A stretch of DNA of 64,000 bases from NCBI GenBank assembly GCA_963701075.1, contig OY969559.1, positions 1,824,001 through 1,888,000 on the forward strand, given 5' to 3'. The position numbers and the translations under genes are program-made. Below the pieces are notes generated by a model, which did no database searches, was not told the origin of the DNA, and saw nothing but the letters and a program-made list of their open reading frames with translations. The stretch comes from an uncultured Nitrososphaerota archaeon. GTDB lineage: Archaea > Thermoproteota > Nitrososphaeria > Nitrososphaerales > Nitrosopumilaceae. Shown in pieces: positions 32,853 through 42,150 of the stretch. Position 1 is the stretch's first letter; the number at the start of each line of letters is the position of its first letter.

Positions 32853-32893
32853 TCTAAAAGATTTAATTGTTCATAGGAAACCTTTTTGATTGC

Positions 32894-32965
32894 GGTGAGG
32901 TGGCAGAGCGGCTATGCGTTCGCCTGCAAAGCGAATCTATAGGGGTTCGAATCCCTTCCTCACCT
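32894..32965 (+). tRNA. tRNA-Cys(GCA)
   Basis: Acceptor GGTGAGG/CCTCACC, anticodon arm TTCGC-CTGCAAA-GCGAA, GGTTCGAATCC T-arm. Confidence 0.95.
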
Positions 32966-32969
32966 TTTA
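32924..32969 (+). repeat. att site (within tRNA-Cys)
   Basis: CTGCAAAGCGAATCTATAGGGGTTCGAATCCCTTCCTCACCTTTTA. Confidence 0.93.
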
Positions 32970-33174
32970 ATTTTTGATATAAAATAGCCTCAGCGTTACT
33001 GTTTTTCGTAACAACATTACGGAATTCTGTAATGCCACTTTTCTCTATCAATGGCAGTTCAAGCATGTAAAAATCCTTTAACTTGTTCCTGATCCGGTGC
33101 TCTAGAACTCGTCTGTAGGTTTTTGATGTTTCTAGCCTACCTGTTAGATAATCACGTTCAGTTTTACTTAGCAT
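32924..33174 (-). CDS. Integrase N-terminal fragment int(N)
   Basis: MLSKTERDYL... reads into the att-encoded KGEEGIRTPIDSLC, in the same frame as int(C). Confidence 0.8.
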
Positions 33175-33178
33175 GCAC

Positions 33179-33550
33179 TCACTCTAATGTCCTCACAAGA
33201 TTCTCAAGGAATTTTTCAATAGTGATTTCTTTACCATTCTTTCTATGTGGATAAATATCCCAAATATCACCCTCAACTAACAGTGCCGGTTGTTCTTTAC
33301 CAAAGAATATCCCACTTTGTCTATTAGTTCCAAAAGATCTCCTTACTTCATATTTATTGAAGACGGAAGGACCGATAACTTTCCCATAGGCGTCTAAACG
33401 TTCTGAATCATTCATTTTTGAAGTATCAAGTATTTTGTAATCTAGTTTCTTTGATTTTTTTAGTTTATCTAGCAATTGTATTATTTTATTCACGTCAGAA
33501 CGGACGTTTGTTTCTTTAGTGCTTATGTATAATGAAGCATTTATTGGCAT
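33179..33550 (-). CDS. Hypothetical protein, probably co-transcribed with int(N)
   Basis: 123-aa ORF ending 4 nt before the int(N) start; TATA-like CTTTATAT upstream. Confidence 0.7.
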   Translation of the reverse strand: MPINASLYISTKETNVRSDVNKIIQLLDKLKKSKKLDYKILDTSKMNDSERLDAYGKVIGPSVFNKYEVRRSFGTNRQSGIFFGKEQPALLVEGDIWDIYPHRKNGKEITIEKFLENLVRTLE

Positions 33551-33590
33551 TGCACTACCACACCCCTACCACACCAGCACATATAAAGAT

Positions 33591-34748
33591 TCATGCCAAT
33601 AACTCCCTTATTCCTATAAATGCCTCCTTTATCTTTGATGCAGAATTCGGTGTCATCGATTTATCCAAAATGAATTTGTTAGATAAAAACAAAATATCTC
33701 TATCAATGAATCCGTTTGCTTTATGCAAGTAAAAATGATCTTTCTTCATTTCAAACTTTTCTTCGTCACCAGAAACATAGATTTCAGTTATCACACAAAA
33801 TGCAATGTGTTGATATTTGTAAAGATATTCTTCCAATCTATTAATTGTGTTATCTATATTATCTCGTAGAAATGAAAAAGTATAATCTCTTATTATGATG
33901 ATATTTAGATGATCTTTTGGTAGTTGTTTTTGTTCTGTTCCCATTTTTGTAGCCATTCTATAAATTTCATCTACCTGATATGTTGGTCCAGAAAAACCCC
34001 CTGTCATATTCCTTCTAGATGCCCAATCTATCAAGAGATCTCTCTTAGAATCCGTTGCGATGACTAATTCTATCACATTTTCTTCTATTATTTCCTCAAA
34101 ACCGGATGACTTGCATCTTTCTAATGCATTGTCTATCTTTGAGAGTATATCCTTTAGATGAGGGTTGGACAGATATTTGTGTATTCGTCCCGTAAAAAGT
34201 AACGTAGGTTTACTATTTGAAGTCGTAAGAAACAATTTTTTAGATATTACATCAAAGGTTTCAGTAACCTCTCTTGCTTGTACACTTTGTCCTAACTCAG
34301 TGATTTCTACAAAAAATTCTTCTTTGGTTTCAGGATTTAAAACTTTAAGATCTGGCACTTTTCCAGTATCAATTTTCGGATAGAATTCAACATTTAATCC
34401 GGCTTTGAGAAACCTATTTGCTATGTCTAATTCAAAAAGTATCTCAAGAAATTTTTCTCTATTTTTCAATTTATCGACTAATTTTCTTGAATTATTACAA
34501 CGTGACACGTTTTCTATAGCATCATAGAATTCTACAAACCATCGTCGTGACGACGGATTATGGAACTGGTATATGTAGTTCCAAACTATCGGATGGCCCT
34601 CTTGTGCTAGGACTGGGAGTGAAATTCCAAAGAAACGTTTGAGATGACGTAGAGATGATTTTGCTTTTTCTTTTTCTGTTTGAGTCAATCCCTCCTCTGT
34701 ATCAATATGCGTTATCCAATAATCCCAATCTTGAATCTCAAATGACAT
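33591..34748 (-). CDS. PD-(D/E)xK nuclease-like protein
   Basis: LFELDIA..F...G..VEF....GKVPDLKV......FFVEITEL resembles a restriction-endonuclease-fold catalytic core. Confidence 0.6.
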   Translation of the reverse strand: MSFEIQDWDYWITHIDTEEGLTQTEKEKAKSSLRHLKRFFGISLPVLAQEGHPIVWNYIYQFHNPSSRRWFVEFYDAIENVSRCNNSRKLVDKLKNREKFLEILFELDIANRFLKAGLNVEFYPKIDTGKVPDLKVLNPETKEEFFVEITELGQSVQAREVTETFDVISKKLFLTTSNSKPTLLFTGRIHKYLSNPHLKDILSKIDNALERCKSSGFEEIIEENVIELVIATDSKRDLLIDWASRRNMTGGFSGPTYQVDEIYRMATKMGTEQKQLPKDHLNIIIIRDYTFSFLRDNIDNTINRLEEYLYKYQHIAFCVITEIYVSGDEEKFEMKKDHFYLHKANGFIDRDILFLSNKFILDKSMTPNSASKIKEAFIGIRELLA

Positions 34749-34766
34749 ACGATCACCTAAGCAAAC

Positions 34767-35598
34767 TCAGATTTTAGTTGCCTTTAAGAATTCAATTAAC
34801 TTGTATGAAGTTTCACAGTACACACGAAATAGCATTAAATTTGAAAACATCTCCATTCTTTCAATTTTTATGCCAGTTGGATGTCCTGTATCATTTCTCA
34901 ATCTTCGTATGAGATTAAGTATTGGACTCGTTTTTGAGTCAAAATCATCTACCATATCACGTGGGAGGTTAGACTTGATTGTAATTTTGATTGTATCAGT
35001 CACTAATTGAATTCGTCTATTAATTGTCTTATCTCTAGTCTTTGCAAATTCATCTTTTATTTTTTGAGACGTAATAGAATCCATCATTGAGTCGTACAAT
35101 ATATCAAAGATGGCCTCAGCAGATACTCCCAACATAACTGCTGATGCAAGAAAATTTCCTCGAAGGAATGTTTCTAAACTTTCGATAAGATAGATTTCTG
35201 CAGTTGTATCGAATTGAGGAGATTTTGACTTTATAAATTTAATATATCCGTCAGGATCATTAGGAATTCCTTCTGTATTTGTCAATACTTTTTTCCCGTA
35301 TGATGTTATTGACATAAATGGCGGATTTAGATTCAGCTCTATCCAGACCCCATCTTAGGACACCTTGTTGTAAAAGTGCATTTACCATATCTAATACATG
35401 CTCTACATTTTCTTCTGGAAGTGGTGAATGACCACCAAGATATGTTACTCCTGCGTCTTTCAGAATTCCTTTGGATAATGCAAGATTGTATACATCATGC
35501 ATGAGAGAACCCATTTGTACACTTCTAGTAGAATTAAGGTAATTCGTTTTTAATACTTCAAAAAGTAGTTGTTTTGTTGTTTCAAAATCCACAATCAT
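34767..35598 (-). CDS. HEPN-domain (DUF4145/AbiJ-like) protein (frameshift near 35335)
   Basis: Two ORFs join on removing one base (WGLDRA-NLNPPFMSITSYG); ESLETF..G.F.ASAVMLG...E helix and R-N-D-T-G-H (Rx4H). Confidence 0.65.
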
Positions 35599-35619
35599 TC
35601 CTACAATTTAATGTTAATA

Positions 35620-35693
35620 AATTGCATAATACTGATATTTCCGGCTATGAACTAGGTTAGCTAGAACTCGTTCGTGTTGCTACGTGGAGGATT
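35620..35693. repeat. 74-bp internal direct repeat, copy 1
   Basis: 65/74 identical to 37094-37167 by manual alignment; core TTCCGGCTATGAACTAGGTTAGCT is identical. Confidence 0.9.
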
Positions 35694-35715
35694 TCCTTAT
35701 AGTCATATATTTTAT

Positions 35716-37026
35716 CTAACTTAACTTACAAATCCCATTTGCAGACAATAATGTTTTTCTAATTGTCTTAGAATCAATTTTTCCTTCTCTCATCTTAATT
35801 ATTGCAGAAAACAACTCAGTAGTAGTAAGTAAACATATTGAGAGTGGTTCTGCTGCGTTTATGGTTTTTTCTGTAAACGGTGCACCTCTTTTGCTAGGAT
35901 ACATATCAAAAAAATGATTAGCAACTAGTATAGCCTTTCTTTCCTTCTTATCAGTGGTTTCGTCCACCAGATAGTGTAATAATTGACGGAATTTCTGTAT
36001 GTCTATACTTTCTTTTTGTCCTGTAACTTCTATAACTGCTTCTTCCTTTCCATAAATTGCAATCCAATCTTTATCTCCCTTTCTTTTCATAGTGAAACCA
36101 ATTTCTTCGAATGCGGATCTTACAGATTCCTCTAGCGGAGTACCATGTTCATAAAGTAATTCTTTGATGAACGATATTTTTTCCAATTTCTCTTTTAGAA
36201 TATCTTTTTCTGAAGTTAGTTTTTTTATCTTTTTTTCATTCTCGGCAATAGAAGAACTAATCTTTGCTTCATCAGGAACAGTAAAATCTTTGATCCATTT
36301 AGGTGATGGATTTTTTTCTCCCTTTTTTAATGACCTGATTGCATTATTTAGCAAGATCTCTGAAAATCTTTCATCATTAAGAGGAGGCAAGAATATCACA
36401 GTGCCTTTTCCTATGGATAGTTGAATTGAAATTGGTTTTTTTGCTTTGTTTACAGCCAGAATTTTGAGGTTTTCCTTCGGTATATTCTGTAGATCTTTGT
36501 ACAAATCAAAATATTCTTTGTCTAATCTAATATCATCAATTTTTTCAAAATATGCTTCCCAGTAGATTTCATTCATCTTAAGATACGGAGAAAATTCTGT
36601 TTGAGTAGTAACAATTGCTTTATTTCCACTTCCCTGTACCAGCATATTTTTAAAACTGAAAATATTATTTTGTTTAAAAGGTAACCAATCATAATTAGAC
36701 AGATAGGCAGTTGTATGTCCTTTTCTTGAATTGAAGTAGTCACAACTCATACCACAAACAGGACGAATAATACAAACTACTGTACCTCCGTTTTCTAACA
36801 AAATGGCTATCTCTCGTTTAAATCTCTCTACATCTTTTTCATAACTGAATAATTCATCCTCAGGAAATTTTTCATAATTCCAAGGCATATCACAACGAAC
36901 ATGCATTGTGCGATAAGTATCAACGATGACCAGATCATAATTGAATGCAGAATTATTTGATATCCCATTTTCTACATCTACATTTTCATTTTCAGTTTCT
37001 ATACCTAAGGATAGAATTTTGATCAA
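35716..37026 (-). CDS. Protein with coiled coil and C-terminal Mrr-like PD-(D/E)xK domain
   Basis: LEESVRSAFEEIGF.....GDKDWIA......VIEVTG....I....RQL..Y; unknown N-terminal domain. Confidence 0.6.
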   Translation of the reverse strand: MIKILSLGIETENENVDVENGISNNSAFNYDLVIVDTYRTMHVRCDMPWNYEKFPEDELFSYEKDVERFKREIAILLENGGTVVCIIRPVCGMSCDYFNSRKGHTTAYLSNYDWLPFKQNNIFSFKNMLVQGSGNKAIVTTQTEFSPYLKMNEIYWEAYFEKIDDIRLDKEYFDLYKDLQNIPKENLKILAVNKAKKPISIQLSIGKGTVIFLPPLNDERFSEILLNNAIRSLKKGEKNPSPKWIKDFTVPDEAKISSSIAENEKKIKKLTSEKDILKEKLEKISFIKELLYEHGTPLEESVRSAFEEIGFTMKRKGDKDWIAIYGKEEAVIEVTGQKESIDIQKFRQLLHYLVDETTDKKERKAILVANHFFDMYPSKRGAPFTEKTINAAEPLSICLLTTTELFSAIIKMREGKIDSKTIRKTLLSANGICKLS

Positions 37027-37093
37027 CAGATCATTTCAAAACAACTATCTAATGAGGATTCTGTAATTTGTTAAAAATTGAACGATGGATTCG

Positions 37094-37167
37094 AATTGCA
37101 TAATGCCAATAATTCCGGCTATGAACTAGGTTAGCTGAAACTCGTTTCTGTTGCTATGTGGAGGATT
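37094..37167. repeat. 74-bp internal direct repeat, copy 2 (overlaps the 3' end of the 120-aa ORF)
   Basis: 65/74 identical to 35620-35693. Confidence 0.9.
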
Positions 37168-37488
37168 CTCCGGAGCTTGTTTGCTAAAAAGTTCCCTTAC
37201 TGCATCTGCAAACCAAACATTGTCTTTACGTGCTTTACGTCTATCAGCCCTTTCAATGACACCTGAGTACAGTAGGATTTTGCTAGCTTCAATTCCTGCT
37301 CTAGCCCATCTGACTTTGCCATAATTATCTAATTTTTTTGAACGAATCTTTCTTTTTGATAGTCTTAGCATCTGTCTAAGGTATGAAACAGCTTCATCTT
37401 CTGGATTTGAGTAATGATCAAGCTTGAATAAGTCATCATCTTGATGTTTTACTAAAAACTTTGAATTATCTGCTGAGTTTTCATCCAT
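37126..37488 (-). CDS. Hypothetical protein
   Basis: 120-aa ORF within the element. Confidence 0.55.
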   Translation of the reverse strand: MDENSADNSKFLVKHQDDDLFKLDHYSNPEDEAVSYLRQMLRLSKRKIRSKKLDNYGKVRWARAGIEASKILLYSGVIERADRRKARKDNVWFADAVRELFSKQAPENPPHSNRNEFQLT

Positions 37489-37494
37489 TTTTTA

Positions 37495-37782
37495 TCACCC
37501 ACTACGGAAAATGGCTTCTTTCATTTCCTTCGTTCTTTTATTCAGTATTGCACCAAATTCAGCTAATTCATCATCAAAGTTTTTTCCTCTCATATTAACA
37601 AGATAGTTCCTAAAGTCAGTGTAGATATGACCCCATGCAAATCCTAAAGCATAGTCTCCTTCTTCCTTGATTTGTAATTCTTTTTTGATTTCTCGGATTT
37701 CTTTTATCCATGATGGAATGGACTCGACCGTACGGTCAATGAGTTTTTCAAGAGTTCCACGTTCAACAGAGTCTAGAGCCAT
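37495..37782 (-). CDS. Hypothetical helical protein
   Basis: MALDSVERGTLEKLID...EAIFRSG; start uncertain. Confidence 0.6.
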   Translation of the reverse strand: MALDSVERGTLEKLIDRTVESIPSWIKEIREIKKELQIKEEGDYALGFAWGHIYTDFRNYLVNMRGKNFDDELAEFGAILNKRTKEMKEAIFRSG

Positions 37783-38184
37783 ACTTGTTTCTCGATAATG
37801 ATCACAGTTCCCCATTCTCAATGTTTCGATTTGCATATTATTTCAAATCCATCTAACAGCCTACTCACATACGTATTTCTGCAATACAAAAAATTAATTT
37901 TCACAGGGTTTTGTTTCCTAATTTCTTATAATTTGGTTCCCTCGTAGACACTCATAACATGAATTATTTTCTTTAAATATTCATATCAGTTAAACGGCGT
38001 TTAACCAATATGAGCACAGAATGTTAAAATTACCAACGTTTTGTATTAATCTCATTCTTTTTCTGTTTTTACCCTTTTTCTCTTTTTGTTACATGTTATT
38101 TTATTATCTTGATGATAATACTGGATACATCTTGATCTAATGGGTTGCCTAACTCTTTCTATAAAATCGAGGGGTGTTATCATA

Positions 38185-38765
38185 TCATGATTGAGAAAAG
38201 TTGTCATAATCTGTAATTTTCTTATTGTTTTTAGAAGTTTTGTCTTCAGGTTCTACCTGCATTTCTGTTAAATCTATTGGATGTAACCTGTGTTCACCTC
38301 TTATTTGTGGACGGTTTTTCTTTATTTTCGGTATTTGTTCTGGCTTTAGAATTCGTTTTTCTCCATCAGGCATAACTACTCGTATTTTCATGCTTTCATG
38401 GTCAGCACAATCCAATATCTTTTGATTCAATGTGATTCTTGTCAGTTTACGTTTACTCGTTTTTGAATGAGAGGGATACGGCCCTTTTATGGAATGAAAA
38501 ATGAGAGTTTTATCGTTCAAGTCAACATCAAGTTTCTCTCCATCTAACATTATTGTGTTATCGTCGTTTATCACGTATTCATTAGGATGTTGTTGTTCGT
38601 ATTCGTTTATGACTATAGCTGTAATTCTAAAATTCTGTGGCTTTGATGAATATTCAATAAACCATTTTTTTGCTTCTTTTACAGTTACAAAACACATAGA
38701 CCATATCCTTCGAATTGATATTTGATAAACATTATTTTCATAAATGCTGTACAATCTACGGGACA
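38185..38765 (-). CDS. Hypothetical protein
   Basis: Open frame; start placed at MSRRLYSIY, downstream of the preceding gene's stop. Confidence 0.55.
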
Positions 38766-38803
38766 TAACTTGAGTTTTTGGCCTTGTCAAAGTTGGGACA
38801 TGA

Positions 38804-39412
38804 TTAGTATGGTCTGTAAATCTGTTGGATTTGGAATAACAATGATTTCCAAAACATAGCGTTTGGATCTCCACCTGAAATGACTACTATGGTAGAGTTA
38901 GATATCCAATTCTGACGATCTAATACTTTAGAAATATCATCATTAGAAATCCCCCTCAACTGATCAGCCAAACAATGCAATGCTGCTAATGCAGCAAAAG
39001 TATCCATAACTGTAGTATATGTTATTTTAAACTGTTTTTCCTTTAACTCATGTTTCAATTCATTATAGGCTTCCCACCATTCCAAGTCTCTTGTAAACGG
39101 TGTAAATTGTAATTTATGGAGAATTGAAACTATCTTAAAATTTGACAGCACTGTTTTCTCATTTATTTTTCTAATTAATGCCGGAATCCCACCATCGATA
39201 ATGATATTGCATCTACTAGAGATTAGTCTTGTTACTGCCTCTATCTGTGCCCCACAAACCAACATCATGTTTAGTAATCTTGGTGAGTAAATTTCTCCTG
39301 TTCTTTGACGTTCATAAGGCACAACCTCATCAAAGTTTAACATTTGTTTTTCAAGATCATTGTGTAATTTTCCTAAATTCTCTAAATCTGCTTGGAACCA
39401 TTCATCAACCAA
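38804..39412 (-). CDS. Divergent HEPN-like protein
   Basis: IYSPRL..MM...GAQIE helix and WWEAYNELKH motif. Confidence 0.5.
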   Translation of the reverse strand: MVDEWFQADLENLGKLHNDLEKQMLNFDEVVPYERQRTGEIYSPRLLNMMLVCGAQIEAVTRLISSRCNIIIDGGIPALIRKINEKTVLSNFKIVSILHKLQFTPFTRDLEWWEAYNELKHELKEKQFKITYTTVMDTFAALAALHCLADQLRGISNDDISKVLDRQNWISNSTIVVISGGDPNAMFWKSLLFQIQQIYRPY

Positions 39413-39466
39413 TTTGGTTATTTCTTGCTGAATTTTGTATTAAGGGTATCCAATTGTTATCAACTT

Positions 39467-40341
39467 TCAAGAAGAATTCCTGAGGCTCCGAGTTTCAGCA
39501 ACTATAGGATTCCACGTATCTATCCATTTACTCTTATGTTCATACATAGAAGGTAAAAAGTAATGTTTCTGAGATACATTACCTCTCCTACCTTGCATGA
39601 ATTCAGCCAACAAAGGATCAACCTTACTGGCATTTATTGTAAAATTCAACTTTCGTAGATATCGTATTTCAAAGCCAAGTTTCTGCTTGTTGATTTTAGT
39701 ATAGACAAGTCTGCTCATTTTGAAGTTTATTTTATCATGTAATTTAGGATGACAGAAAACTGCATTTGCCTTCTTTGTTCCTCTATCCCAGAATAACTCC
39801 ATTATTCCGTCATTGCAGATGTTTGAATGATTGTTAAAGGCATTTACTGCCTCTGTTGTTCTAAGACCACTTACTAATGTGAATAATCCAAATATCCTGT
39901 ATCGTTCAGGTAGTTTGCCAATAGAGTCTAAAACTTGTTCTAACTTCATGTTATTTGCCATAAGATAGTTATTTACAGACGGCTTCCTAGACCATTTGAG
40001 TTCCTTTTTCTTTAGCCAATGTGTGAATTGTTCATGAAAATTACTATCGTTTTTTATGTCTAAGAACCGTGTAAGATTTGCTACTGACTTTAACACGTCT
40101 AGTTTCTTTCTAGTGTCATTCAATGATACAAGTTCATTAGAGAATCCCAAATGATGATATTTCTTGGAATAACTAAAAATGATACTTGCATATTTTTTGT
40201 TTTTGTTTGAGACAAGCCAGTTGTAGTAATCTTCCCAGTTTAGATCTCTTATACAAGTCCTAAATTGTTCTATTGTAGTATTAGATTTTGCCACACTGCA
40301 AAGCGAATCTATAGGGGTTCGAATCCCTTCCTCACCTTTTA
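39467..40341 (-). CDS. Tyrosine integrase C-terminal fragment int(C)
   Basis: SGLR..EA, RGTKKA, RYLRK, FMQGR and HY catalytic residues; begins in the att-encoded peptide. Confidence 0.9.
40296..40341 (+). repeat. att site (duplicated tRNA-Cys 3' half)
   Basis: Identical to 32924-32969. Confidence 0.93.
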
Positions 40342-40395
40342 TGATATCATAATAACCTACTTTACTAAATACACCAAGTTCTACCAAATTCAGAT

Positions 40396-42150
40396 TTGGC
40401 CGATAGAAGTAATGGATTGCTAGAATACATACCAGGGGCAAGACCGCTTTTACAGCAGTCATCTAATGGACAACCGTTAGAGGGGTTTGCCCAGAACATA
40501 CGGGATAGTGTAAGAGAGTACGCTGAAGATGCACAAAATGAAGTTGAAAAAGGCCATAATTTTCTTCAATGGGTGCTTACAAGAGTATTTGAGGCAACAG
40601 AAGATGATGCAACCGATGCAATTATCGATGGACCAAACGATCTGGGCATAGACGCATACCTGCCAGTTGACTTTTCTGAAGATAAGATCTATCTCTTTCA
40701 ATCAAAATATGGAACTTCGCATTCCATGGAAGCCATTGCCAAGTTTAGACAAGACGTGCAAAGTTTACGCACTAGGGACATTACAAAGATGCGGCCCGAG
40801 ATTGCACGTCTAGTAACACAGATCCAAGAAAAAAATCTGAAAATTGAGTGTGTTTATGTTACTGATCAAAAAGTTGATGAGGAAAATTACGAGTCTGTTG
40901 AGATACACGATATAGATACAATAATCCAAAAACTTTGGGATAGGATAAAAAAACCTGCAGTAGGAAAGAAGGCGGCAATAAGGCTAGAGAGCAAACTGAG
41001 GTATCAGAACACCCTCCTTGGAATCTTGAAGTTAAGAGAACTAACTAACTTTGTAACAAAAAATAAGGATTACGTCTTTGAATCAAACATAAGACAGTGG
41101 ATGCAGTTTAAAACGACTGTAAATAAGGGCCTTCGCGAGACTTTACAAGAATCGCCTAACAAATTCTTTTACTACAATAATGGCATAACCATAGTTGTAA
41201 ACGATTTTGAAGAACTTGAGGATAATTCAATACTTTTACACGCACCACAGATAGTCAATGGGGCACAAACATCTAATTCAGTATTAGATCATGCAAAACG
41301 AACTCACAATTTGGATGGAAGCATCACTGTCACCATAATCAAAGCAGCAGACGAATTGGACCAGAACAACATTACAAAGTACAGAAATTCACAGAACGCA
41401 GTAAGAGGAAAAGATCTGGTTTCTTTGATGGACTTTCATAAATCTATAAAATCTCAGATGGAGAATTTCAGATATTTTTATGAAATACAAGCAGGTTCAT
41501 TTGATAGTAAAGCAAAATCACAACAATCAGAATTCATTGGTGATCCCATATACAACAAGTATCTTCCAGATAATCACAAAAAAGTCATTGTTGCCAAAGA
41601 TGCCATACAGGCATTTGTAGCAGGAATTGAGCAGAGACCTACTGAATCATACAGCTCACCTGCACAGTTCTTACCAAGAGGAAGCAAGTATGACGAAGTA
41701 TTCAATGAAAAACTAAAAGATGACTGTAGGCTATTGTTGTATCCTTATCTCGTAAAAGAATATGCAAAAAAGACGTTAAATTATGGAAAGAAGGGAGGCC
41801 ACAAAACAAAAAGATATGCGACCCTCTTTTTTGTTGCAGTTTACTTTAAAATTCTTCATGAGAAAATAATACTTACCAAAGGCGACTTTAAAGAAGATAT
41901 TGCAAAACTAGAGCCAATTTTCAAGAGTGTCAAGCTAAACCAGAGAATTTTAAAACTTACAGACACCGTCGCGACAAAATTTCTAGAAGATACTGTTGTT
42001 GACGATGAGATGACGGCTGCAAATACATACCATAACTTCTTCTCACATCATGTATGGCTGGATTCCATGATACGTGTTATTGAGAAGAAGATAAAGCAAG
42101 AAGAAGACGAGATTGCCAGTATACGAAAAATAGTGCAAGATCTTTTCTAA
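40396..42150 (+). CDS. AIPR family protein
   Basis: DGPNDLGIDA..FQSKY, NIRQ, FFYYNNGITI, QIVNGAQT, NSQNAV. Confidence 0.88.
   Translation: MADRSNGLLEYIPGARPLLQQSSNGQPLEGFAQNIRDSVREYAEDAQNEVEKGHNFLQWVLTRVFEATEDDATDAIIDGPNDLGIDAYLPVDFSEDKIYLFQSKYGTSHSMEAIAKFRQDVQSLRTRDITKMRPEIARLVTQIQEKNLKIECVYVTDQKVDEENYESVEIHDIDTIIQKLWDRIKKPAVGKKAAIRLESKLRYQNTLLGILKLRELTNFVTKNKDYVFESNIRQWMQFKTTVNKGLRETLQESPNKFFYYNNGITIVVNDFEELEDNSILLHAPQIVNGAQTSNSVLDHAKRTHNLDGSITVTIIKAADELDQNNITKYRNSQNAVRGKDLVSLMDFHKSIKSQMENFRYFYEIQAGSFDSKAKSQQSEFIGDPIYNKYLPDNHKKVIVAKDAIQAFVAGIEQRPTESYSSPAQFLPRGSKYDEVFNEKLKDDCRLLLYPYLVKEYAKKTLNYGKKGGHKTKRYATLFFVAVYFKILHEKIILTKGDFKEDIAKLEPIFKSVKLNQRILKLTDTVATKFLEDTVVDDEMTAANTYHNFFSHHVWLDSMIRVIEKKIKQEEDEIASIRKIVQDLF

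Follow-up and report, generated by a model that had tools for sequence, protein, structure and literature searches.

We describe here a 7.4-kb segment at the tRNA-Cys gene of a mesophilic soil ammonia-oxidizing archaeon, which is very probably a cryptic integrated element of recent arrival that carries accessory cargo, is most likely trapped, and has an SSV-type integrase split at tRNA-Cys. The segment lies in a window of 64,000 nucleotides, the whole stretch of DNA that was analyzed (G000:C1:1824001-1888000), within a genome of 1.92 Mb contained in one contig. It is delimited by two identical copies of a tRNA half, it holds the two parts of one integrase gene at its opposite ends, and it is missing from the same site in the closest relative.

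Attachment Sites at the tRNA-Cys Gene

The element is bounded by two direct repeats of 46 bp that are identical at 46/46 positions, and the start-to-start distance between these attachment (att) sites is 7,372 bp (Table 1). A 41-nt core of the repeat gave exactly two matches in the window when up to 3 mismatches were allowed, and none in 100 shuffles. The repeat spans from 2 nt 5' of the anticodon to 4 nt beyond the end of a tRNA-Cys(GCA) gene that was called by both ARAGORN and Rfam (tRNA, 59.6 bits); the Rfam scan returned no family other than tRNA, and this gene is the sole tRNA-Cys among the 35 tRNAs that ARAGORN detects genome-wide. The tRNA gene is intact: the left repeat (attL) provides its 3' part, beginning 2 nt ahead of the anticodon. 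The G+C content is 0.33 within the element, compared with 0.36-0.42 in the flanks.

Regarding the repeat itself, in the contigs of sequencing run X1 the 46 nt form a contig of their own whose depth (8.6) is close to that of the single-copy flanks (9.0-9.1) despite the two copies per genome, probably as an artefact of the way in which contig depth is recorded.

An Integrase Gene Partitioned by Its Own Attachment Site

The antisense of both repeat copies encodes one 14-residue peptide, KGEEGIRTPIDSLC, which forms the end of the first part of an integrase, int(N), and the start of the second, int(C). At the left end, a minus-strand open reading frame (ORF) of 103 aa (32863-33174) shows KGEEGIRTPIDSLC at the integrase end and then reads through into the tRNA antisense; at the right end, a minus-strand ORF of 331 aa (39467-40462) holds these 14 residues again, this time specified by the right repeat, and its frame stays open for 41 codons upstream of att, to an ATG at 40462. 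The two parts have the same orientation and frame, both are free of stops, and the att site lies inside the integrase ORF; when they were joined in silico, a frame of 359 codons (83 + 276) with a single terminal stop was obtained. An earlier note on this DNA, made from its letters alone, had proposed identical 46-bp repeats around 7.4 kb, an antisense peptide common to both ORFs, and a tyrosine recombinase of the SSV1 type, with its catalytic motifs, that would be rebuilt from 83 and 276 aa. The repeats, the peptide and the count proved exact, and the assignment to SSV1-type recombinases was borne out by the family match, the profile match and the aligned boxes described below.

Int(C) matched the Pfam family PF16795 (Phage_integr_3, "Archaeal phage integrase") with an E value of 9.7e-10 and 39 bits (cut-off 27), the match covering residues 172-302 of the 331-aa ORF. 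A profile of 32 int(C) relatives had 3VCF and 4DKS, the catalytic domain of the SSV1 integrase, as its sole PDB matches (E 3.8e-4), and the boxes of the profile aligned with those of SSV1 (GLRtEE with GVRLSE, WdRxTKK with WTRGYKG, YLRK with YFRK, and rHY with QHY). In the 290-aa piece that runs from the att peptide to the stop, residues R160, K189, R229, H259 and Y260 are invariant in 32/32 relatives; in the numbering of the rejoined protein (+69) they correspond to R229, K258, R298 and H328-Y329. Int(N), for its part, consists of a conserved N-terminal domain of ~60 residues, for which no Pfam family match was found, followed by the att-encoded peptide. Judged from its sequence, the enzyme belongs to the SSV-type (type I, "suicidal") tyrosine integrases of archaea, and its gene is divided by the att that it contains. 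When int(C) was used as a single sequence, only weak PDB matches to the receptor-binding part of clostridial neurotoxins appeared (E ~0.002, 55 residues, in an N/K/Y-rich stretch), and these were treated as chance.

Relatives of both parts are numerous. In a search of 5.8 billion proteins, 162 of 596 candidates were int(C) relatives; among the 120 listed, lengths range from 196 to 313 aa, most match PF16795, and those that carry a name come from Nitrosotalea, Nitrosotenuis, Nitrosopumilus and Nitrosarchaeum. The N-termini of these relatives are differing tRNA-antisense peptides (...GEEGIRTPIDSLC, ...WWDLNPRPFAYK, ...NPRPNAYE and ...SNPRPNAPQ) and, for this reason, the relatives are int(C) fragments at several tRNA targets. 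For int(N), 80 representatives were found among 1.84 billion proteins at an E value of 0.001 or lower (24 of them at 1e-10 or lower), all of them 39-162 aa long.

Occupied and Empty Sites in Related Genomes

The 14 kb around the site was searched in 40 relatives, 24 of which belong to the same genus. The 7.4-kb element was carried by none of the 24 congeners, and the site lacks the element in 18 of them, including the closest one. In 13 congeners (G001, G003, G006, G008, G009, G011, G012, G013, G018, G020, G021, G022 and G024) the flanks overlap on one att copy, and in five (G002, G004, G010, G015 and G016) ~390 nt lie between the tRNA and an AIPR gene; this distance is ~700 nt in G019, the site is occupied by a different element in G014, and four congeners (G005, G007, G017 and G023) were uninformative. 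Genomes G011, G012 and G019 are unpublished, and 11 direct empty sites remain when they are excluded. In G006, the closest relative, the flanks are 93-98% identical and the site is empty. A finer comparison of 11 loci revealed nine exact empty sites, G019 and G014 being the exceptions, and the empty sites differ from the genome under study by exactly the inter-repeat segment plus one repeat copy. Relatives with an empty histone-tRNA-Cys-AIPR locus, which the earlier note had suggested looking for, do therefore exist, and the 7.4 kb is not invariably present. The cargo was found in no relative searched, its matches being limited to the 202-aa gene and to pieces of the integrase. Because the repeats are identical, the integrase halves are intact and the site in the nearest relative is empty, the sequences point to a recent insertion.

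The AIPR/AbiU-like gene on the right of the element (40396-42150; Pfam AIPR, 3.6e-55; PADLOC AbiU, 1.2e-42) lies outside the repeats and is present at empty sites; it is chromosomal. This abortive-infection gene adjoins tRNA-Cys in the congeners with a readable site, so that the integration hot spot borders a chromosomal defense gene. In G014, the ~390-nt spacer between tRNA-Cys and the AIPR gene holds a 123-aa ORF.

Sister Elements and Distribution of the Integrase Family

The same design was found in three other genomes. The element in G014 (L015 3483-15101) occupies tRNA-Cys with a 42-bp repeat and measures 11.6 kb, that in G100 occupies tRNA-Thr(CGT) with a 43-bp repeat and measures 13.2 kb, and that in G143 occupies tRNA-Gly(TCC) with a 43-bp repeat and measures 13.3 kb; each of the three has int(N) adjoining the tRNA and int(C) at its opposite end. 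In G014, int(C) corresponds to protein P0005, which NCBI attributes to Ca. Nitrosotalea okcheonensis; for this organism, the table of a 2019 survey lists four elements, in tRNA-Pro, tRNA-Arg, tRNA-Val and tRNA-Gly, and none in tRNA-Cys (PMC6563490).

Common to all four elements compared is the integrase only, the sole further match being that of the 202-aa protein to a 219-aa ORF of the G143 element (53% identical). The cargo of the three sister elements includes recognizable genes of defense and addiction: G100 harbors a full type I restriction-modification system (HsdS, HsdM and HsdR), G014 harbors AbiTii, Fic/DOC, a trypsin-like peptidase, HAD, TPR, DUF4352 and HxlR proteins, and G143 has a HEPN_AbiV gene beside the 202-aa homologue, together with a D5-like primase-helicase.

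An int(C) match at an E value of 1e-10 or lower was present in 12 of the 201 genomes sampled from the order (12/144 when only high-quality genomes are counted), representing 8 of 67 genera, and several of the matches in these 12 genomes contain internal stops. The integrase family uses at least four tRNA targets, via the 3' or the 5' tRNA half. In a marine subfamily the target is tRNA-Gly(CCC), of which the 5' half is used; the head of int(C) and the intact tRNA overlap in 12/12 loci checked. One marine tRNA-Gly(CCC) element (L104 1134-3559) has 2.26 kb between 41-bp repeats and encodes a single secreted-looking protein of 241 aa. There is also a Cys-type mini-element of ~3.5 kb, and these mini-elements (2.3 and ~3.5 kb) carry just one to three small genes.

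Traces of the Unsplit Gene

The integrase family is almost always seen split. None of the 120 int(C) relatives listed exceeds 313 aa, and none of the 80 int(N) relatives exceeds 162 aa. A profile scan of a viral contig collection gave nine pattern matches and zero confirmed relatives. The metagenome contigs include 152 stretches coding for relatives, from which 80 loci were retained; at 57 of these the contig ends less than 300 nt upstream of the match, which is how assemblies behave at a duplicated tRNA half. Of the 80 loci, 25 with more upstream sequence were examined, and in 25/25 the frame stops at the int(C) match or no more than 69 codons upstream of it, giving frames of 279-339 aa, none of which contains the int(N) domain.

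Two of the 80 int(N) relatives, P0148 (134 aa) and P0157 (114 aa) of the marine tRNA-Gly subfamily, do not end with the int(N) domain: their sequence goes on across the att peptide and into the head of int(C), while true split int(N) frames diverge directly after att. From their sequences, P0148 and P0157 probably derive from integrase genes that had not been split, of which they would be fragments; no other trace of a free form was found. Since they look like unsplit fragments, a free form would seem to exist and to be hardly sampled.

Cargo of the Element

Between the integrase parts lie nine ORFs as called in the assembly, all of them on the minus strand and tightly packed (Table 1). No meaningful Pfam match was obtained for any of them, and no hallmark replication, primase, capsid or conjugation family was found in the cargo with Pfam, PHROGs, PADLOC or NCBIfam, in agreement with the earlier note, which had seen no Rep, primase, capsid or conjugation gene. 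A bacterial promoter/terminator scan returned 25 promoter-like sites compared with 35.6 expected, with a bacterial consensus that is irrelevant to archaea.

Table 1. Features of the tRNA-Cys element, in window coordinates
Feature	Position	Strand	Evidence or remark
tRNA-Cys(GCA), intact	32894..32965	+	ARAGORN, Rfam
attL, left 46-bp repeat copy	32924..32969	.	perfect direct repeat
int(N), first 83 integrase codons	32926..33174	-	ORF; 80 relatives
cargo ORF, 123 aa	33179..33550	-	no family matched
cargo ORF, 385 aa	33591..34748	-	in no known family; model pLDDT 81
112-aa and 182-aa overlapping ORFs, probably one ~276-aa gene	34767..35598	-	run contigs
74-nt direct repeat, copy 1	35620..35693	.	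88% identical to copy 2
cargo ORF, 436 aa, GATase1/ThuA-like and FokI-like nuclease domain	35716..37026	-	structure model
74-nt direct repeat, copy 2	37094..37167	.	last 13 codons and stop of 120-aa ORF
cargo ORF, 120 aa	37126..37488	-	ORF call; no family
cargo ORF, 113 aa	37495..37836	-	faint RHH_7 match only (E 0.075)
cargo ORF, 229 aa	38185..38874	-	ORF call; no family
cargo ORF, 202 aa	38804..39412	-	sole cargo gene having relatives elsewhere
int(C), 290 codons from att peptide to stop, catalytic domain	39467..40339	-	PF16795
attR, right 46-bp repeat copy	40296..40341	.	perfect direct repeat

The most informative cargo protein is that of 436 aa, which has 11 relatives besides itself and whose structure model has a mean predicted local distance difference test (pLDDT) score of 86. 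Its architecture comprises a GATase1/ThuA-like domain (residues 1-237, Z 10-11), a long helix, and a C-terminal FokI-like PD-(D/E)xK domain. Residues 284-435 superimposed on the FokI cleavage domain with a Z score of 14.1 and a root mean square deviation of 2.5 A over 138 residues (Foldseek E value, 4.1e-5), and they also matched AF1548, R.BspD6I, NucS/EndoMS, HindIII and Can2. On the strength of the modeled fold, we are confident in placing this domain in the PD-(D/E)xK nuclease superfamily. Among the relatives E333 is invariant and D320 and K345 are nearly so, and these three residues may form a putative active site.

Two 74-nt direct repeats bracket the gene of the 436-aa protein. Copy 2 constitutes the 3' terminus of the 120-aa ORF, copy 1 is its decayed duplicate, and the gene of the 436-aa protein looks like a 1.4-kb cassette that was inserted later.

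The 385-aa protein has five relatives, and its model gave no Foldseek match at an E value of 0.001 or lower; a PD-(D/E)xK-like core in that model is a lead only. In the ESM Atlas, the look-alikes of both the 436-aa and the 385-aa protein form clusters found across many bacterial phyla, none of them named. The minus-strand ORFs of 112 aa (35260-35598) and 182 aa (34767-35315) overlap out of frame, and one base at 35334 is absent in the contigs of three of four runs (X1, X3 and X4, X1 being possibly the source of the genome), which yields a single frame of ~276 aa. The two ORFs are thus probably one gene, and the base at 35334 in the genome record may be either an indel error or a real frameshift variant. 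The C-terminal part of the ~276-aa product has a sub-threshold match to HEPN_RiboL-PSP (E 0.019, 15.3 bits, cut-off 28.4) and an RNDTGH motif. The stop of the 123-aa ORF lies 4 nt before the ATG of int(N).

The 202-aa gene has a homologue that adjoins the HEPN_AbiV gene of the G143 element, as indicated above, and it also has a chromosomal paralogue of 205 aa with ~83% nucleotide identity (L014 9361-9978; G000:C1:1430361-1430978) that stands by itself, its neighbors being genes for aspartyl-tRNA synthetase, an ABC transporter and SMC. No second element was found there: these are housekeeping neighbors, and neither a tRNA nor a long repeat is present. In addition, the short segment that separates the integrase stop codon from the start of the 202-aa ORF (39407-39466) shows 81% identity over 56 nt with congener G007:C40, and from this likeness it may be a shared regulatory or recombination-prone stretch.

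Proposed Mechanism and Alternative Explanations

From the known chemistry of SSV-type integrases we infer that the element would have arrived as a circular form with a whole integrase gene of 359 codons and attP inside the gene. Site-specific recombination of attP with the only tRNA-Cys gene, at its 3' part, would have inserted the circle, rebuilding the tRNA and cutting the integrase, so that the 83 codons of int(N) were left on one side and the 276 codons of int(C) lay beyond att on the right. The element would most likely be trapped, given that its integrase is cut, that the genome has no second copy of the family and that a replication gene is lacking. It would leave only if a related element gave a whole integrase in trans, perhaps helped by residual Int(C) activity; such excision, driven in trans by an uncut integrase, is recounted in a review for SSV2 and, with pTN3, for TKV4 (PMC8371274). 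An incoming related element would be the likely source of that enzyme because the 1.92-Mb genome has just one copy of int(N) and one of int(C), and its other recombinases belong to PF00589 (four classical members, three of them above the cut-off). The cargo would be accessory, and at least part of it, namely the FokI-like nuclease and the possible HEPN protein, would most likely serve nucleic-acid-targeting defense or addiction.

Several observations weigh against this account or against parts of it. No recombination product was seen: the runs that contain the stretch are assembled contigs, and those of all four runs examined end at the 46-bp repeat, with neither a joint nor a noteworthy loose end. 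A six-frame PF16795 scan of the genome itself stayed below the per-genome threshold, and the four PF00589 recombinases might conceivably act on the 46-bp att. The in-frame ATG at 40462 could let Int(C) be made, and that the element is trapped is therefore not proven. As to the cargo, no meaningful match was found in PADLOC, PHROGs or NCBIfam; the nuclease likeness of the 385-aa protein is weak, its top match in a wide structure search (Z 8.4) being an unrelated fold and the nuclease rows reaching Z 4.3-7.7; and the FokI-like domain of the 436-aa protein does not have the textbook E-x-K lysine at +2 (E333-V-T), a role in which K345 may replace it. The FokI-like domain and the defense genes in three sister elements make the "defense-carrying" part of the earlier note plausible, yet not shown, because no cargo protein falls in a known defense family. 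The need for a helper integrase in trans, also put forward in the note, would agree with the published cases of SSV2 and pTN3/TKV4 and with the single copy in this genome. The main proposal of the note, a cryptic integrated element (in the sense of Krupovic et al. 2019), is upheld by the integrase, by an att-bounded insertion that is variably present, and by the lack of any virus, casposon or conjugation hallmark gene among the families searched; the label "satellite" would be speculation.

That the element moves by itself, Int(C) being made from the ATG at 40462 or another start and excising it alone or with Int(N) and no helper, is unlikely. The open frame upstream of att and the retention in int(C) of all the invariant catalytic residues would fit such activity, as would the weak recombination in vitro by truncated Int(C) of SSV1 and SSV2 and the apparent expression of TKV4 Int(C) that a review describes (PMC8371274). 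According to the same source, however, the SSV enzymes' N-terminal portion is required for multimerization and the halves do not associate in solution (PMC8371274), and no excision joint was seen in the contigs of four runs, which are unable to show rare forms. No RNA run was listed among those containing the stretch. Slightly less probable still is a provirus, or a satellite, of an undescribed virus type of ammonia-oxidizing archaea whose capsid genes are too divergent to be recognized or are borrowed from a helper virus. The first SSV-type integrases came from spindle-shaped viruses, a sister element encodes the D5-like primase-helicase, and eight of the nine cargo ORFs as called are without a known family or a confident fold. 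Nevertheless, the cargo gave no PHROGs match of note; the fusellovirus provirus features looked for, capsid proteins and a DnaA-like ATPase, had no PHROGs or Pfam match in it, divergent forms being possible; the profile scan of the viral contigs yielded no relative; the four elements share nothing beyond the integrase and one small gene; and the mini-elements carry no more than their one to three small genes.

There is hardly any chance that the segment is no mobile element at all and owes its repeats and two ORF pieces to misassembly or to the end of the tRNA having been duplicated locally. Repeats can confuse assemblies, and the breaks of the contigs at this repeat in all four runs might be taken in that sense. 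Contigs of five runs from two studies (two of the runs possibly being the genome's own source) nonetheless cover the segment as far as the edge of each repeat, at an identity of 99% or higher, the same design recurs in three other genomes at three tRNAs, and the empty sites are precise. Taken together, these results favor a cryptic integrated element with a split SSV-type integrase over the alternatives.

Comparison with Known Systems

The closest parallel is provided by the integrases of SSV1 and SSV2 (PF16795; 3VCF and 4DKS), with which the present enzyme shares the Pfam family, the aligned R, K, R and Y boxes, an attP inside the integrase ORF, att sites of 40-50 bp that are part of a tRNA gene, and int(N) and int(C) at opposite ends. 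It differs in that the host is a mesophilic soil ammonia oxidizer rather than a hyperthermophile, that no fusellovirus gene was detected, that the similarity to SSV1 is at the profile level only (E 3.8e-4), and that the N-terminal domain of ~60 residues matches no family.

Among ammonia oxidizers, the 2019 survey describes one split SSV1-like integrase, in element NitEve-E3 of Nitrososphaera evergladensis (Krupovic et al. 2019, PMC6563490). That element belongs to the same phylum, has a 46-bp att in a tRNA gene, is comparable in size (11.2 kb) and lacks viral hallmark genes, whereas its target is tRNA-Glu(TTC) and its host is from another order of ammonia oxidizers, the comparison being by description only (PMC6563490). 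In the literature searched, which did not extend to preprint supplements, no other account of a split integrase in ammonia oxidizers was found beyond NitEve-E3. Split integrases are described mainly in Sulfolobales, Thermococcales, Archaeoglobales and some Methanosarcinales (PMC8371274; PMC7253208), and the closing section of the review links them to hyperthermophiles (PMC8371274). The integrases of pTN3/TKV4 and pT26-2 from Thermococcales are likewise suicidal, travel with many unrelated cargoes and use variable tRNA targets (Badel et al. 2020, PMC7253208; PMC8371274). They belong, however, to plasmid and virus families with known free forms and replication genes (PMC7253208; PMC8371274), whereas here the free form is barely sampled and the element has no replication gene.

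For the 436-aa protein, residues 284-435 resemble FokI (1FOK/2FOK), R.BspD6I, AF1548 and NucS/EndoMS with Z scores of 14.1, 11.8, 12.1 and 9.4-9.6, respectively. Unlike FokI-type nucleases, the protein has no recognizable DNA-recognition or methylase partner, its N-terminus is GATase1/ThuA-like, the lysine of its E-x-K motif is not at the textbook position, and it shows no family match at the sequence level.

Significance

Ammonia-oxidizing archaea drive nitrification in soils and oceans, and how they acquire genes is little known. The splitting of an integrase by its own att is a device known from hot-spring archaeal viruses and barely documented in ammonia-oxidizing archaea. The integrase family described here is recurrent in mesophilic ammonia oxidizers, is almost always seen split, and has a swappable cargo that is often defensive. 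We put forward only tentatively the broader view that split SSV-type integrases are no specialty of hyperthermophiles but form an overlooked family that is widespread in the mesophilic ammonia-oxidizing archaea of soils and seas, ferrying swappable and often defense-related cargo into tRNA genes in a near one-way manner with a free form so short-lived that public data contain almost none of it, and that the 436-aa protein represents a new family of defense nucleases. The anatomy of the element provides a search signature for such islands, namely a repeated tRNA half combined with int(N) and int(C) at opposite ends. The question of how self-destroying integrases persist, which a review leaves open (PMC8371274), now extends to organisms that live at ordinary temperatures.

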